From an uncultured Phycisphaerales bacterium (GTDB lineage Bacteria; Planctomycetota; Phycisphaerae; Tepidisphaerales; Tepidisphaeraceae): DNA of 64,000 nt. Made by a program: the position numbers and the translations under genes. Of the stretch, positions 1,146 through 33,452 are shown piece by piece. The stretch is from the NCBI GenBank assembly GCA_963755915.1, contig CAVWLP010000003.1:896001-960000 (forward strand), in the 5' to 3' direction. Below the pieces are notes generated by a model, which saw nothing but the letters and a program-made list of their open reading frames with translations, was not told the DNA's origin and did no database searches. Position 1 is the first letter of the stretch, and every line of letters begins with the position of its first letter.

Positions 1146-3434
1146 ATGTCGGCTGCGCCCGCGGTAGAGTTTTCGTCGGTTGGACTGGGGCTGGCCGCGC
1201 TTGCCCTTGCCGCTTGCGCGATCGCCATCGCAATTGGTGCAAAATCCCCCTGCCTCTCGCCAGCCGCTGGCTTTTCGCGGTCGGCTTGTTGCTGCTCGCG
1301 CTTGCGGCCGCCGGACCTGTATGGTTCCGGACCAAACCCGGGCGCCTTGCCGTCATGGTCGATCTTTCCCCCAGCACCCGCGGCGCCCAGTTCCGCAACG
1401 CCTGGTTCCTCAAGCAGCGGATCACGCAGCTCGTCGGCAACTCGTCGTACCAAACCATCGCCTTCGCCTCGGAAAACCGCCCGCTGGATTTAAGCGGCGC
1501 CATCGAGGAGATGCCGGCGGATCGAACGATTTTCTCGCCTCCGCCTGTCGATGCGATTCTTCTTTTCAGCGATGCCCAGTTCCAGCTCCCGGAAAAATCG
1601 CCGCCGGTTTACGTGGCGATGGACGAGGGGCTGGAGAACGTCAAAGACGGCGCTGTGAAAAAGGTGGAGCTGCGGGGTGGATCGCTGGCCGCCACCATCT
1701 CCAACACCGGCGCGGATCGCGCCGCCTCTTTCCCTGGTTCGACGGCAACCGTGGGCCGGGGAACGATCGTTATCACGCGGCCCGCTCCTTCGGATTCGAC
1801 CATTGCGACGGTGAAGCTCAACGGCGGCGACTTTTGGCCGGAGAATGATTCGATCTCTACGGCCGTCCTCCCGCCCCCGGCGAGCGAGAAGTGGTGGGTT
1901 GGGGAAAATCCTCCCGACACCGACTGGCGAACCTTCGACGCCAACCAGTTGCCGGTGCTTGAACAGGAATATCTTTCACCGGCGGTCATCGTTTTGGCGA
2001 ACCAGCCTGCCGATCGTTTTTTGCCGGTGGGACTGGAGCGCCTGGCGCAATACGTGCGCGATCTGGGCGGGTCGCTGCTGATCGAAGGGGGCGACCATGC
2101 GTTCGGCGCGGGTGGATATGGGGGAACGATTCTTGAGCAATTGAGCCCGCTGGCGAGCTTTCCGCCGACGCCGACGACGCGCTGGGTTTTGCTCGCCGAT
2201 GGAAGCGGTTCGATGGCCAAGGGGACCGGCGGCGCATCGCCGTGGGCCGTGGCAACGAGCGCGATCATCAAGCTGCTTCCCGGCATTCCGCCTGCCGATC
2301 CCGTGCAGATCGGGCAGTTTTCGCAGGACGTAAAATGGTGGCTTCCCGCGGGCACTGCGGCCGATGCGGCCAGCGCCGCGCTTCCGCCGCCCGACGCTTA
2401 TCCGCATGGGCCGACGAACCTTGAAGCGGCGCTGAATGAGGTGGCGGACGATTCCAGCGCCGAAATGCGGACGGAGTTGATCCTGCTCTCGGATTGCGAC
2501 GCCACGATTTCGCATCCGGATCTTTTGTCCAACGTTCTGGCCCGCAAGCAGGTCCGGCTGCACGTGCTGGCGATCGGAGATGGGAGGCGCGCTGGGGATT
2601 ATTCGGGGGATTTGCCAGGGGACGGGGGGGGAAGTCATTGAGGAAAAGGATCCGGAAAAGTGGGCGCAGTCGCTGAAAAGATTGTCGCAGGCGGCGCTGC
2701 CGCCGCTGGTGGTGAATCAGCCGGTGATGGTGCGGTTTGAGAACGGGGCGGAGTCGATTTCGATAGCGCCAACGTCGCTGTGGAACCGGACGTGGGTGAA
2801 GCCGGATGCGCAGTGGTGGGCGGAATCGGATCTGGGGCAGCCGCTGGCGGGATTCTGGAAAATGGGGACGGGAACGGTGCTGGCGATTGGGTTTGGGGCG
2901 GATGATTCTTCACTGGAGGCGCTGGTGGGATTGATCGCGGAGAAGCCGCGCGATCCGCGGTTTTCGGTGAGGTGGGACCAGGATTCGCAGGCCCACCTGA
3001 CGGTCGACGCGGCCGGGAAGGGAGAGTTTCTCAATGGATTGGCGATTACGCTGGAGATTTCCGGGAGCGATGGGACGCAGACGCGGGCGCTGGAGCAGAC
3101 GGGGCCGGGGAGATACGAAGCGATGATTGAATCTTCGCGGGAGACGCGGATCGCGTCGGTGAAAGTCGGGGGCGAGACGATCGATCGGTCGGCAATTTCT
3201 GGACGCTATCCGCAGGAGTTTGACGCGCTGGGAAACGATCATGAAGCGATGCGGAAGTTGGCGCAGCAGAGCGGGGGCGAGGTGATCTGGCCGGGGAGTG
3301 CGGGGCCGATTGATTTTCACTGGCCGAAAGTTGGGGTGGCGCTGGGGCCGGGGATTTGTTTTTTGGGGTTGGGGTTTCTGGTGGCGGGGGTGGTGGTTTG
3401 GCGATTGAACGGGGGATTTTTGGGAAGTGAATGA
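1146..3434 (+). CDS. Membrane protein with VWA / glutamine-amidotransferase-like domains (two frameshifts)
   Basis: N-terminal TM segments, DLSPS and DGSGS MIDAS-like motifs, YVRDLGGSLLIEGG, C-terminal TM. ORFs 1146-, 1214-2641 and 2580-3434 join by frameshifts. Confidence 0.7.
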
Positions 3435-3540
3435 GCGGCTTGATGGGAGTTGGGTTTTGGGAGAAAATTGGGGGGAGATTTTTATCGGTTATGGTTGTTG
3501 TGACGAGGTGGACGCGGTTACTCGAATATCCATGAAAGGC

Positions 3541-3800
3541 TTCCCCGATCAACAAAAAAATTCTCCTCGCGAAAAGCGGTTACTTCTTTTTCATTCCGAG
3601 ACCTCTTCGTCCGTCTGCCGGCTGGTGACTGGCCTCTCGGCGGTCCATATATCCATTCGTGCTGGCCGGGCCCGATCAACAGCGTTTGGCCGAGCGGCAC
3701 ATGATCTCATCCGGCGCGGGCGGCCCAATTATAACGTGGCCTCTCGAGCCTGAATTGCTTCGGGCTCATGGCCAATTCGAGCCAGGGCTGGCCCACTTCC
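3541..3800 (-). ncRNA. Putative bridge/seek RNA of the IS110 element
   Basis: Two stem/internal-loop units whose loop strands match the target (3775-3781, 3727-3737) and the donor circle junction (3648-3656, 3701-3710). Boundaries approximate. Confidence 0.6.
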
Positions 3801-4928
3801 GGACGAGATCAGTTCCTTATGTCTTTTGCTTCCCGGTCTTGGGGGCGGCACCTCCTGATAATCCTGGTTGTTGTTCCACATTGAATAGACGATCCGACAT
3901 ATGCGGTTGGCGACGGTGATGTAGCCGCGACCGCGGTCCTGTTTGCCGTTGTTGGTACGGCGATTGAAAAGTTCTCGCAAAAAAGCGTCCCTTTGCACTG
4001 CCGAGTGGGCGGCCTGAATAAAGGCCCACTGAAGGGTAGTGCGACCGGCGTGACCAAGTCGGCGGCCGATGGGCTTGGCATCGCGATCTTCTCCGCTGTC
4101 GTCGGCCTGCGGCGCCAGCAGGCTGTATTGGAGCAGGCATCGACTGGAGGAGAAACGATCGATTCGGCCGATCTCGGCGACCAGCGTATATCCCAGCACG
4201 GTGGAGATGCCCGGCACGGTCATCAGGCGCTGGCCGATCTCCGATCGTTTCATGGTCGCGCGGAACCGGCGGGTGGCCCGTGCGATCAGGCGACGCAGAG
4301 AATCCAGCAGCATGAGATCTTCCTTGAGCGTCTGGCGTCCTGAGAGGCTCAGGGTCTTGTCCTCGGTGAGCAGCGACAGGAAACGCCGGCCCTGCACACC
4401 GAAGAGGTCGGTGAGCTCGCTGACGATTCCATGGCGGTGCAGCGTCGCGTGAATGCGATTTTTCAACTGCGTTTGAGCCTGAACGAGGGTCATCCGATGG
4501 CGCAGCAGCTCCCGCTGATCACGAATCTCGCGTGGGGCCAGCCAGACTTCCCACCAGCGCTTCATGATGCCTCGCTTAAATATCGGTTTTTCGTTCCAGA
4601 GTTCACTGAGCAGGTCGGCATCGACCTTGTTGCTCTTGGCGATCCCGCGTCCTTCCCGCCATGCCGCCACTTTGCGGCTCGAGGCCAGGTGGGGCTGCAT
4701 GTTCAAAATCTGCAACTCATCGCTGAGCCATCCCCAGCCAAATGTCGCTTCCAGGATCACCGGCGTGCCTCGCGGCCACTGAGCGATTCGCTCTCGAAGC
4801 TTTTGGCGATCCAGGTGATCCAGGCGTTCGCGAGCAATGACCTTCCCGGAAGCGTCGCGCAGACTGGCGGACGAGAACTTCCGATGGACGTCCAGCCCTA
4901 CCTGAACTACCTTGTCGTATAACTTCAT
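3729..4928 (-). CDS. IS110 family transposase/recombinase
   Basis: RuvC-like DEDD N-terminus (VGLDVH, ILEAT, KSNKVDA) and C-terminal Transposase_20-type segment (TVPGIS..LVAEIGRIDRF, DSGE serine, LQWAFIQAA). Confidence 0.95.
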   Translation of the reverse strand: MKLYDKVVQVGLDVHRKFSSASLRDASGKVIARERLDHLDRQKLRERIAQWPRGTPVILEATFGWGWLSDELQILNMQPHLASSRKVAAWREGRGIAKSNKVDADLLSELWNEKPIFKRGIMKRWWEVWLAPREIRDQRELLRHRMTLVQAQTQLKNRIHATLHRHGIVSELTDLFGVQGRRFLSLLTEDKTLSLSGRQTLKEDLMLLDSLRRLIARATRRFRATMKRSEIGQRLMTVPGISTVLGYTLVAEIGRIDRFSSSRCLLQYSLLAPQADDSGEDRDAKPIGRRLGHAGRTTLQWAFIQAAHSAVQRDAFLRELFNRRTNNGKQDRGRGYITVANRICRIVYSMWNNNQDYQEVPPPRPGSKRHKELISSGSGPALARIGHEPEAIQAREATL

Positions 4929-5004
4929 GGCTATCTCCTTGTGTGAATGACACCAAAACCGGAATGTTAACTTCCGGCAGGGAGATGGCCTTTCATGCGA
5001 TTAT

Positions 5005-5110
5005 AAAACGCGGTTCCGCCGCGATAACACGTGGCTGCCCCGGTGACGTTCGGTGCGACCTTGAGGTGTTGGGCGGGAAAGCGCCGTGCAAGCACGGCGG
5101 CTACACGGGG
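5005..5110. repeat. Dispersed ~150-bp repeat, copy A (left part 3476-3527, split by IS110), ending in a GTAG-type hairpin
   Basis: Shares GGTTCCGC..CAC.TGGCTGC.CCGGTGACGTT..GTGTTGGGCGGGAAAGCGCCGTGCAAGCACGGCGGCTACACGGGG with 12929-13030, and its 5' part with 30775-30892. Confidence 0.85.
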
Positions 5111-5135
5111 AGAAGCGGGGGACGGGGGCGGGGGA

Positions 5136-6338
5136 TCAGGTGATTGAATGCATCGTGACTTGGAGGATTTCTGCCGGGGCGTTGACGCGGAGGGGGAACC
5201 AGTTGCCTACGCCGTTGGAGACGATGAGGGTGGAGTTGGGTTTGTCGTAGCGGCCGGACCAGTATCGGAAGCGCAAGGGGCCGGCGCCGATGGATTTGGT
5301 GAGCATGATCTGCCCGCCGTGGGTGTGGCCGGAGATGACGAGGGGGATTTCGTGCTCGGCCGCGGTGTCCCAACTGTGGGGATGGTGGGCCATCATGATG
5401 GGAAAGAGTCCGGGGATGCGCAGGTCGGCGGTGTAGGCGACGGAGCCGGCGCGGAGGTATTCGTCGGTCCAGGTGGTGCCGAGGAGCTGGAACGCAGTGC
5501 CGCGGGTTTGGATGACGCTAGATTCATCGACAAGGATTTTTACGCCGCGGCGGCGGACGGATGCGACAAAGGCACCGGGACCCTGGATGCAGTCGTGATT
5601 TCCCAGGACCAGATAGACGCCGTCGCGGGAATCGAGGCGGAGGACCATGTCCAGGGCGCTGGGCAGATCGGCGCGGGAAATGTTGATCAGATCGCCGGGG
5701 AGGAGAACAAGGTCTGATTTCAGTCGGTTGCTGGCTTCGGCGATGTCGTCGAGCATTTTCTGGGAGGAGAATTCGCCGACGTGAGCATCGGCGATGACGG
5801 TGATGGTGTAGCCGTCGAGTTCTCTTGGCCAGGCGGGGAAGGCAAGGTCGTAGGATTTCACGCGGAATTTTCCGAGCTGGGAGGCGGCGGCGGCGCACAT
5901 CGAGGCGGTGGCGAGAGGGGCGGCGACGATGGCGGCGGAGGCGAGGAAGTTGCGGCGGGAGAGGCTTGCGGGCGGAGATGGGGGCTGCGGAGCCGGAGGC
6001 GTGGGAGAAAGGGCACGCCGTGCCCACTGGCGGATCGTGTGCGCGAAATACTCCAGCAGCAGCATAAGCACCAAAACGGGCAGGACGAGGAAGTGCCAGA
6101 TGAACTGGGCGCTGACAAGCCAGCGGGGCAGCGGGTCGCGGCGTCCGCCGAGCAGGGGATTTGCCAGGGCGGCGGTAACGCAGAAGCCGATCGCGAAAAT
6201 GGCCCAGAGGATGACGAACGTGCGCCAGTATTTTTGGCCGCGCATTCCGCGGGTGAGAACGTAGATTCGGCCTAGAACCAGAAGATCGAGGACGATGAAG
6301 ACGGAGAGGATGGAGGCGAAGAGATAGACGGCGCGCAT
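5136..6338 (-). CDS. Membrane-anchored metallophosphoesterase (YkuE/YaeI-like)
   Basis: N-terminal TMs, SRRNFL linker, DAH, GD, GNHD, HHP and GHTHGGQ motifs. Confidence 0.92.
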   Translation of the reverse strand: MRAVYLFASILSVFIVLDLLVLGRIYVLTRGMRGQKYWRTFVILWAIFAIGFCVTAALANPLLGGRRDPLPRWLVSAQFIWHFLVLPVLVLMLLLEYFAHTIRQWARRALSPTPPAPQPPSPPASLSRRNFLASAAIVAAPLATASMCAAAASQLGKFRVKSYDLAFPAWPRELDGYTITVIADAHVGEFSSQKMLDDIAEASNRLKSDLVLLPGDLINISRADLPSALDMVLRLDSRDGVYLVLGNHDCIQGPGAFVASVRRRGVKILVDESSVIQTRGTAFQLLGTTWTDEYLRAGSVAYTADLRIPGLFPIMMAHHPHSWDTAAEHEIPLVISGHTHGGQIMLTKSIGAGPLRFRYWSGRYDKPNSTLIVSNGVGNWFPLRVNAPAEILQVTMHSIT

Positions 6339-12838: not shown

Positions 12839-12928
12839 TGCGGGCTCCAGGGGTTGGGGAAAGTGGCACCTTAGACGGGAAGGTTCGGTCGATCAACTTT
12901 TTCTTTGCGAGCTTCGCTTATGCGAATG

Positions 12929-13030
12929 GGGTTCCGCGGCGATGGCACATGGCTGCTCCGGTGACGTTAGGGGCGGCTTTGACGTGTTGGGCGGGAAAGC
13001 GCCGTGCAAGCACGGCGGCTACACGGGGGA
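12929..13030. repeat. Dispersed repeat, copy B
   Basis: Near-identical to 5012-5110, including the GCCGTGC-AA-GCACGGC hairpin and CTAC. Confidence 0.85.
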
Positions 13031-30722: not shown

Positions 30723-30774
30723 GCCGGGAACAAAGTATAGGTTGAGGAGAGTTATTAACTAGGAGTCAAGAAGA

Positions 30775-30892
30775 AGATTTTATCGGTCACGGTTTTGGCA
30801 ACGAGAAGACGCGGTTACTCGTATAAAACAAGCGGTTCCGCCGCGGGAGCACATGGCTTGCCCTGGTGACGTTCGAAGTGGCCGTGAGGTGG
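30775..30892. repeat. Dispersed repeat, copy C (empty IS110 target site)
   Basis: GACGCGGTTACTCGTATAAAACAAGCGGTTCCGCCGCG joins the two sequences that flank the IS110 at 3511-3527 and 5005-5023. Confidence 0.85.
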
Positions 30893-30945
30893 GTAGCAGC
30901 AATGGGGAGTTAACAAAATCGATTGGGGGAGTATCTTGGTGGGTT

Positions 30946-33379: not shown

Positions 33380-33452
<73 letters not shown>

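Follow-up and report, generated by a model that had tools for sequence, protein, structure and literature searches.

The window considered here is a stretch of 64,000 nt from an uncultured Phycisphaerales bacterium of the family Tepidisphaeraceae (assembly GCA_963755915.1, contig CAVWLP010000003.1, positions 896,001 to 960,000 of the forward strand). At 3529-5001 on its minus strand lies an insertion sequence (IS) of the IS110 family, which splits one copy of a dispersed repeat. The evidence makes it very probable that this IS is a recently active, RNA-guided element with an IS1111-type organization, and that it is aimed at a single site in the repeat.

The insertion sequence and its ends

The body of the IS is 1473 bp long, or 1475 bp with one copy of its TA core. 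In the orientation of the transposase gene (tnp), the left end (LE) begins at 5001, 73 nt before the gene, and the right end (RE) finishes at 3529, 200 nt past the stop codon. The open reading frame (ORF) of tnp (3729-4928, minus strand) encodes a DEDD-type, RNA-guided transposase of 399 amino acids (aa), and its last 26 codons overlap the RNA described below. The protein matches Pfam PF01548 (DEDD_Tnp_IS110; E = 7.4e-9) and PF02371 (E = 1.6e-13), as well as NCBIfam NF033542 (“IS110 family RNA-guided transposase”; 161.5 bits, with a cut-off of 140). In the tetrad alignment, D13, E60 and D103 are invariant in the clade, as are S278 and G279 in the P-x4-SG motif (LAPQADDSG). The nearest named relatives are IS4321 and IS5075, with 27% identity over 89-92% of the protein by tblastn (29% in a MAFFT alignment), and unclassified IS110-family genes score alike. 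Similarity to IS621 is restricted to the C-terminal domain (E = 7e-4 with the single protein, 3e-9 with a clade profile). The window’s protein continues beyond the point, near its residue 362, at which IS5075 and a Halorhabdus homologue stop; hence, the remaining tail is clade-specific and accounts for the length of 399 aa.

Relatives of the IS occur well beyond the window. Of 141 genomes in the order, 12 have a transposase match at E <= 1e-30, among them that of the window (G000; 3 contigs, 6.6 Mb). A search with the clade profile fetched 61 loci, assigned to Tepidisphaeraceae, Phycisphaerae, other metagenome-assembled genomes of Planctomycetota and a few bins of other phyla. Both ends are present in 34 of these loci and in the window, and the termini are conserved: TA followed by ATCnCATGAAAGGC at the start, and GCCTTTCATGRA followed by TA at the finish, the variable form of the latter being GCCTTTCATG, then G or A, then A, then TA.

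Where exactly does the IS end? Three uninterrupted repeats elsewhere in the genome are exact empty sites (CTCGAATATAAAACGCGG); they read CTCGAATATAAAACGCGGTTCCGCCGCG, which is precisely the left flank of the occupied sites joined to their right flank. Compared with these empty sites, the two junctions overlap by TAT (3527-3529 and 5002-5004), and the conserved termini of relatives narrow this overlap to TA (3527-3528 at the RE junction and 5002-5003 at the LE junction). Judged from these alignments, the exchanged core is TA. Both junctions carry it, and every one of the three empty sites has a single copy; thus, there is no true target-site duplication, as is the case for the IS110 family. The initial annotation had described the IS as an IS1111-type element of the IS110 family, and this description holds: the architecture shows sub-terminal inverted repeats (IRs), a short 5′ end, a long 3′ end and no true target duplication. 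The 10-bp IRs that it reported are also present and are kept in relatives (CATGAAAGGC at 3531-3540 in the RE and GCCTTTCATG at 4988-4997 in the LE, both as read on the plus strand). Its partition of the junctions was 2 bp off, however. The three empty sites and the relatives give TA rather than the ATA core that it had proposed, and the IRs lie 2 bp (RE) and 4 bp (LE) from the core rather than 3 and 7 bp from the ends. The excision product expected from an ATA core, CTCGAATAAAACGCGG, has 0 matches in the genome, compared with 3 for the TA-core product. Consequently, the circle junction proposed with it, CATGCGATTATATCCATG, is 2 nt too long, and the predicted junction becomes CATGCGATTATCCATG on the plus strand. 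The terminal extension beyond the IR is therefore 4 bp (ATCG) for the LE and 2 bp (GA) for the RE, with the TA core in addition, or 6 + 2 bp if the core is counted on the left. The extensions are asymmetric, and their total is 1 bp shorter than in the definition of the IS1111 group.

Four copies in one dispersed repeat

The stretch 3511-5023 is present four times in the genome of the window. The copies are 100% identical over 3521-5023, and all differences are confined to the first 10 of the 1513 query bases, which belong to the flank. A comparison across the genome bears out the expectation that the copies share their ends and their setting: all four have the same ends and occupy one position of the repeat in one orientation, with outer surroundings that are otherwise unrelated. 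Such agreement is far more than chance would give.

The repeat is ~140 bp long and about 80% conserved. A blastn search with an uninterrupted copy (30770-30900) gives 45 matches in the genome, and 33 near-full-length copies were aligned. A profile search with nhmmer gives 50 hits, comprising 39 uninterrupted copies (at least 100 model positions covered), 8 half-hits that represent the four IS-split copies, and 3 partial copies. Two short variable stretches in the repeat flank the motif CTCG(T/A)AT(A/G), and the IS sits exactly there. In the window, the left half of the interrupted copy lies at 3464-3526 on the plus strand (nhmmer hit C3:899464-899532) and is the right target flank in the orientation of tnp; the right half lies at 5004-5084 on the plus strand (nhmmer hit C3:900998-901084) and is the left target flank. 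The latter includes, on the minus strand, the hairpin CGCGGCGGAACCGCG and TTTT. In the repeats that have been hit, this terminator-like hairpin with TTTTATA (5009-5023, minus strand) reaches precisely to the insertion point, which places the IS directly after a possible terminator. The window holds two further copies, one of which is partial, with the 3′ half only (12918-13002). The other is an uninterrupted paralogue at 30768-30903 (plus strand). Part of it, 30808-30846, had been taken for the empty target, and it is indeed a homologous copy of the repeat family. It is a paralogue and a near-target, however, and the alignment on which the claim rested was shifted by 2 nt. Once this is corrected, the paralogue has CTCGTA-TA-AAA opposite CTCGAA-TA-TAA of the occupied site, a difference at 2 of the 11 bp that the guides described below would read. 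A consensus fold of the repeat gives nothing convincing (-5 kcal/mol), and no family in Rfam matches it.

The distribution of repeat and IS bears on two other explanations for the four copies. First, the copies may have arisen by segmental duplication or by recombination among repeats, in which case the IS would be a relic. A single repeat family hosts all of the copies and could promote homologous exchange, and the left junction of one relative (L025) is rearranged. However, beyond about 70-130 bp on each side, the sequence around the copies is unrelated, and the 100% identity of the IS does not extend to the repeat halves, which differ. Moreover, the tnp ORF is intact, and several related genomes carry multiple identical copies at different loci. 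Duplication of a relic is thus extremely unlikely. Second, the repeat halves flank every copy of the IS and could be the outer ends of a larger mobile unit, such that the repeat spreads with the IS. This idea is very hard to reconcile with 39 uninterrupted repeats against 4 interrupted ones, or with relatives that have the same ends and sit in quite different sequences. A genome of the same genus, G124, has 26 matches to the repeat and no transposase match at E <= 1e-30, so the repeat exists independently of the IS; we give a larger unit hardly any credence. The repeat occurs once in another genome of the genus (G121) and was not found in 10 others, many of which are fragmented.

Contigs from run X8, a rhizosphere metatranscriptome, cover 3514-3921, 4096-4278 and 4806-5004 of a relative that is ~92% identical, although they do not in themselves demonstrate transcription. 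This relative is also flanked by the repeat (loose ends at 3514 and 5002), and X8 includes a contig with an uninterrupted repeat. Related elements are therefore present in other soils.

A predicted guide RNA that follows the target

A bridge/seek RNA with a core of 202 nt is predicted on the minus strand at 3606-3807, from the closing-helix strand CUCGUCCG (3800-3807) to CGGACGAA (3606-3613). It folds with -88.6 kcal/mol (z = -2.84), and 4 of 200 shuffled sequences fold equally well or better. In the minimum free energy structure, two segments corresponding to the two target flanks lie on opposite strands of a single internal loop bounded by helices P2 and P3.

The first of these segments is the right-target guide CUCGAA (3776-3781, minus strand). 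Read in reverse complement, it gives the right flank TTCGAG; the adjacent U (3775) faces the A of the core. In relatives, conserved GGGCCAGCCC on one side and (U)A-UGGYC on the other enclose the guide, which precedes the left-target guide by about 35-63 nt. Among 28 distinct elements, positions +1 to +6 of the right flank are complementary to the RNA in 27, 26, 24, 25, 26 and 25 cases, and position +7 in only 5; L061 and L066 lack an anchor and were omitted. The mean score is 5.96 of 8; permutations average 3.45, and none of 10000 scores as high. At least five contiguous pairs are formed in 23 of the 28 elements. Most relatives sit at G-TA-GGGTnnGC followed by a GC-rich hairpin, and their left flanks are unrelated, even among copies of one element within one genome. 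Judging from these flanks, the targeting of relatives is REP-like (repetitive extragenic palindromic) and read mainly on the right side. The right flanks of the window’s IS (TTCGAG) and of L025 (TACGAG) are set apart from those of most relatives. L025 is 83% identical to the window’s IS, and its guide reads CUCGUA, a case of natural retargeting.

The second segment, the left-target guide (3729-3734, minus strand), consists of UUA, the core UA and an A, and lies directly 5′ of nUGGGCCGCCCG. It corresponds in sense to the left flank TTA-TA, extended by the first LE base. In 25 distinct RNAs, representing 31 insertions, the guide matches position -1 of the left flank in 24 and position -2 in 16 (permutation means, 17.1 and 6.8; p <= 1e-4). 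At position -3, agreement drops to 12 of the 25 (p = 0.05), and positions further out do not match. All non-G states at position -1 (A twice, T and C) are matched by the guide. L041, L061, L056 and L066 were omitted from this test and from that of the left-donor guide. As a separate observation, L025 is flanked by an 81-nt inverted repeat (1362-1442 and 2891-2971; 94% complementary) that includes the RE tip. At its left junction, an inverted RE tip and sequence of the right-flank type replace the canonical LE tip, and its own left-target guide is unmatched. This locus looks like a rearrangement at the sub-terminal repeat.

Other segments of the RNA correspond to the ends of the IS itself. The left-donor guide, AAUGGAUA plus U (3649-3657, minus strand), corresponds in sense to the RE tip ATGGA, the core TA and the first base of the right flank. 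Across elements, it reads AAUG(G/A)AUA, and the G/A tracks the G/A of the RE tip in 25 of 25 cases. The base after the core equals right-flank position +1, also in 25 of 25 (G in 22, T in 2, A in 1). Hence, in both same-sense guides, the post-core base belongs to the partner DNA, namely the first LE base in the left-target guide and the first right-flank base in the left-donor guide. In IS621, such post-core positions are termed handshake guides. The segment GAGAU (3704-3708, minus strand) is complementary to the LE tip ATCnC and is a putative right-donor guide; three lineages with altered LE tips (ATTCC twice, ATGAC once) show matching changes in the RNA. Three other segments were considered as guides and rejected. 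The variable stretch before the U-run, considered as a target loop, is a variable hairpin with no match to the flanks. CGAAU in the donor loop, a candidate for a right-flank guide, is conserved whatever the target. Hairpin H5, another candidate for this role, differs between two elements that share one right flank.

The helices that hold these segments in place are conserved among relatives. RNAalifold on plain MAFFT alignments gave only fragments, so the helices (P1, P2, P3 and S1) were set by hand and counted on an alignment of 23 distinct RNAs with both anchors (L036, L041, L044, L053, L063, L066 and L072 were left out). Overall, 94.6% of cells are paired, compared with 31-43% in controls in which the partner strand was slid, and 8 pairs are changed on both sides (20 cells). 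P1 joins the 5′ end of the RNA with its 3′ end, and one of its pairs reads CG in 13 sequences, UA in 8 and UG in 2. The 5′ strand of P2, UGGGCCAGCCC (3785-3795, minus strand), pairs with GGGCCGCCCG (3717-3726) and closes the target-binding loop with 9 pairs; 100% of its cells are paired, and 2 pairs are double-changed. P3 and its hairpin (3737-3774, minus strand) form the distal side of this loop, with UGGCC (3770-3774) opposite GGCCA (3737-3741). Relatives have GGUC/GACC where the window has GGCC/GGCC, and 4 sequences are double-changed at one pair. The predicted donor-binding multiloop (3616-3716, minus strand) is closed by S1, in which CGCCGG (3711-3716) pairs with CCGGCA (3616-3621); S1 is 98.6% paired, and 2 of its pairs are double-changed. 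Within this multiloop lie the right-donor candidate, a variable hairpin, the left-donor guide and H5 (3626-3647). A search of the whole window with Rfam at the gathering score gives nothing apart from one tRNA gene (33380-33452), and 3400-5150 gives only chance-level hits at E <= 10.

Could the target instead be recognized by the protein or by the shape of a DNA hairpin alone, with the conserved 3′ region serving as a regulatory or terminator element of tnp? Most relatives do insert beside GC-rich hairpins, a small stem (CGAG...CTCG) starts in the right flank of the window’s IS, and the RNA is so far a prediction. Nevertheless, such recognition would not account for six consecutive RNA positions that follow the right flank over differing targets and stop sharply at +7, or for the left-flank and RE-tip positions that co-vary with the RNA. 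Indeed, hairpins of the same type that differ in their first six bases are accompanied by different guides. We consider recognition without an RNA quite unlikely.

Reading by an RNA guide also explains the choice among repeats. The 11-bp site TTA-TA-TTCGAG is present in all 4 occupied repeats and in 4 of the 39 uninterrupted ones. The other 35 uninterrupted-type repeats, which do not have the exact site, have received no insertion (hypergeometric p about 6e-4). The site read in this way occurs in a subset of the repeat, and all four copies are located there. The suggestion in the initial annotation that the element is programmed to hit a planctomycete dispersed repeat is upheld to the extent that guide segments in the 3′ RNA match the flanks; the AT/ATA core through which it was thought to do so is replaced by TA.

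The RNA and tnp overlap. The 3′ end of the IS had been described as non-coding, which is true of the 200 nt after the stop codon, whereas the first 78 nt of the predicted RNA, its 5′ third, are coding sequence inside the tnp ORF. This arrangement is general: of 20 elements whose ORF reaches 384 aa or more, all 20 show it, and their tnp crosses P1, P2 and the right-target guide and covers 44-80 nt of the RNA. Two or three codons at the tail of the transposase coincide with this guide. The stop codon of tnp is the UAA of the left-target guide in three elements (the window’s IS, L026 and L027). The overlapping stretch is read as SRPGTGQP..PMV in 18 elements and in another frame in the window and L025 (ISSGSGPALARIGHE). 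Since the same nucleotides are read in different frames, their conservation is at the level of the nucleic acid, that is, the RNA. In searches of the published literature outside the supplements of PMC11208160 and PMC11187229, which may bear on the matter, no description of a guide RNA overlapping coding sequence was found, and no account of such an overlap in IS110 elements of Planctomycetes.

Mechanism and relation to known systems

How might the IS move? It would be excised as a circle joined RE-TA-LE, and this junction would rebuild a sigma-70 promoter. When the ends are joined in silico, the sequence TTGACn-17-(G/A)ATAAT results, with a -10 box across the RE tip, the core and the LE tip. 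At least 9 of 12 positions fit in 28 of 30 distinct junctions. The window has TTGATC-16-GATAAT (9 of 12); its -35 box lies at 3547-3552 on the minus strand, and the -10 box GATAAT would form only across the junction. No sigma-70-like site was found in the integrated copy. The promoter would drive a single transcript comprising tnp and the ~200-nt bridge/seek RNA, which overlaps the last 78 nt of tnp and the 3′ end. One internal loop of the RNA would read the target, CUCGAA pairing with the top strand of the right flank and UUA-UA with the bottom strand of the left flank and the core. A second loop would read the ends of the IS, and the DEDD-type recombinase would exchange strands at the TA core. 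A hairpin, GCCGGAAGTTAACATTCCGGT followed by TTT (4958-4978, minus strand), is located in the left end, in 5′ untranslated sequence shortly before the ribosome-binding site, and is conserved in relatives; it could be an attenuator or a translational control element. In the contigs of three public DNA runs (X1, X2 and X4), neither an empty-site joint nor a circle joint was found, which is uninformative because contigs drop rare forms. The one apparent joint in contigs of the public runs, between 5115 and 3470 with 33 letters in between, lies outside the IS and is read as two neighboring repeat copies.

Several points weigh against a recently active, RNA-guided element, or limit what can be said of it. 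First, transcription, processing, circle formation and strand exchange are argued by analogy with IS621, ISEc11 and ISPa11, and the empty sites surveyed are those of the window’s genome alone. Second, the third DEDD position of the transposase is an invariant asparagine, N100 (KSNKVDA), in 7 of 7 clade members (N100 and K101 are encoded at 4626-4631, within KSNKVDAD). The equivalent residue is D in IS5075 (KNDFVDA), in the Halorhabdus element (KSDRKDA), and in IS621 and ISCro4 (KTDxVDA), although the N-terminal alignment to the PDB entries is weak by itself. A D-E-N-D site may be tolerated, since the clade is evidently active, with identical elements in multiple copies. Third, the guides do not fit perfectly. 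There is no 5-nt contiguous match to the right flank in 5 of the 28 elements (L028, L032, L033 and L072, as well as L036, which is an anchor error), the left guide reads just 2-3 nt, GAGAU is only a candidate for the right-donor guide, and the permutation tests leave the relatedness of elements uncorrected. Moreover, 4 perfect 11-bp sites in repeats and 2 outside repeats are unoccupied. Fourth, the fold of the RNA has an alternative. Its 5′ strand can also pair with the internal segment CCGGACGAG, closing a target-loop domain of ~100 nt; this pairing is 95.3% paired, with less covariation. Both pairings may form, and there is possibly a shorter RNA of ~100 nt ending at CCGGAUGAG. Lastly, the hairpin before the U-run at the 3′ end was considered as a terminator; it is weak (z = +0.39), and this role is not supported.

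The interleaving of the guide RNA with tnp may itself have consequences, and we raise these tentatively, as a doubtful extension of the RNA-guided reading. Retargeting would rewrite the C-terminus of the transposase, and a ribosome finishing translation would have to unfold the target loop. Combined with the two pairings of the 5′ strand, to CCGGACGAG or to the 3′ end, which exclude each other, this could act as a switch that couples translation of the recombinase to the folding or processing of the guide, in an enzyme with an asparagine-containing (D-E-N-D) site.

The closest known systems are those of the IS1111 group, such as ISEc11, ISPa11 and ISKpn4 (Siddiquee et al. 2024, PMC11187229). 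As described there, members share with the window’s IS a DEDD transposase with a PF02371 C-terminal domain, sub-terminal IRs of about 10-13 bp (the threshold is at least 7 bp; the window has 10 bp), and a guide RNA located at the 3′ end, the 5′ end being short. In IS1111-type seekRNAs, the segment that binds the top strand comes first (5′), followed by the one that binds the bottom strand, with an overlap at the insertion point (PMC11187229), and the order of the guides in the window and their overlap at the core match this arrangement. Some members target REP-type repeats, and the promoter is described as present at the circle junction only (PMC11187229), in agreement with the junction promoter predicted for the window. 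There are also differences. As far as PMC11187229 describes the group, the ORF has 330-350 aa rather than 399 aa, the RNA lies in a non-coding region whereas that of the window begins inside the ORF, and the extensions are 7 + 3 or occasionally 6 + 3 bp, compared with 4 + 2 bp plus the TA core. A review table gives seekRNAs of 82-96 nt (short forms) and 151-172 nt (long forms), compared with ~200 nt in the window, and identity to the named IS4321 and IS5075 is just 27%. The putative assignment to the IS1111 group is one of architecture and guide order.

IS621, which represents the IS110 group and its bridge RNA (Durrant et al. 2024, PMC11208160; PDB 8wt6), is alike in having a target loop and a donor loop, each reading both strands around a 2-nt core, and in inserting into REP sequences. 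It also resembles the window’s IS in that the post-core base of the same-sense guides belongs to the partner DNA. It differs in the place of its RNA, which precedes the gene (5′) within the left end, and in the reversed guide order, and its sub-terminal repeats are described as very short (PMC11208160). The donor side of many IS1111 orthologues is a multiloop (PMC11208160), as in the window and unlike IS621. ISPpu9 and ISPpu10 of Pseudomonas putida (PMC12288879) offer a further parallel: multiple copies sit at one defined position of a dispersed intergenic repeat, and element and target share a dinucleotide at both junctions. Circular intermediates are reported for these elements (PMC12288879), whereas the circle of the window is predicted only. 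Their target is a 35-bp REP (PMC12288879), compared with a repeat of ~140 bp in which no strong consensus fold was found. ISPpu9 differs further in belonging to the IS110 group, with an upstream RNA and, in the account given in PMC12288879, neither sub-terminal IRs nor a junction promoter.

What does the IS in the window add? First, RNA-guided recombinases of the IS110/IS1111 type are under development as programmable genome-insertion tools, and the clade described here, about 30 natural elements from Planctomycetota, is previously undescribed. Second, its guide code is directly readable, with 6 nt that read the right flank, 2-3 nt that read the left flank, and TA as the core, and it includes natural retargeting events. 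Third, guide RNAs may begin inside the transposase ORF, so searches confined to non-coding ends could miss parts of them. Finally, guide reading accounts for the repeated interruption of one repeat family in this genome and predicts which copies of the repeat are still open to insertion.

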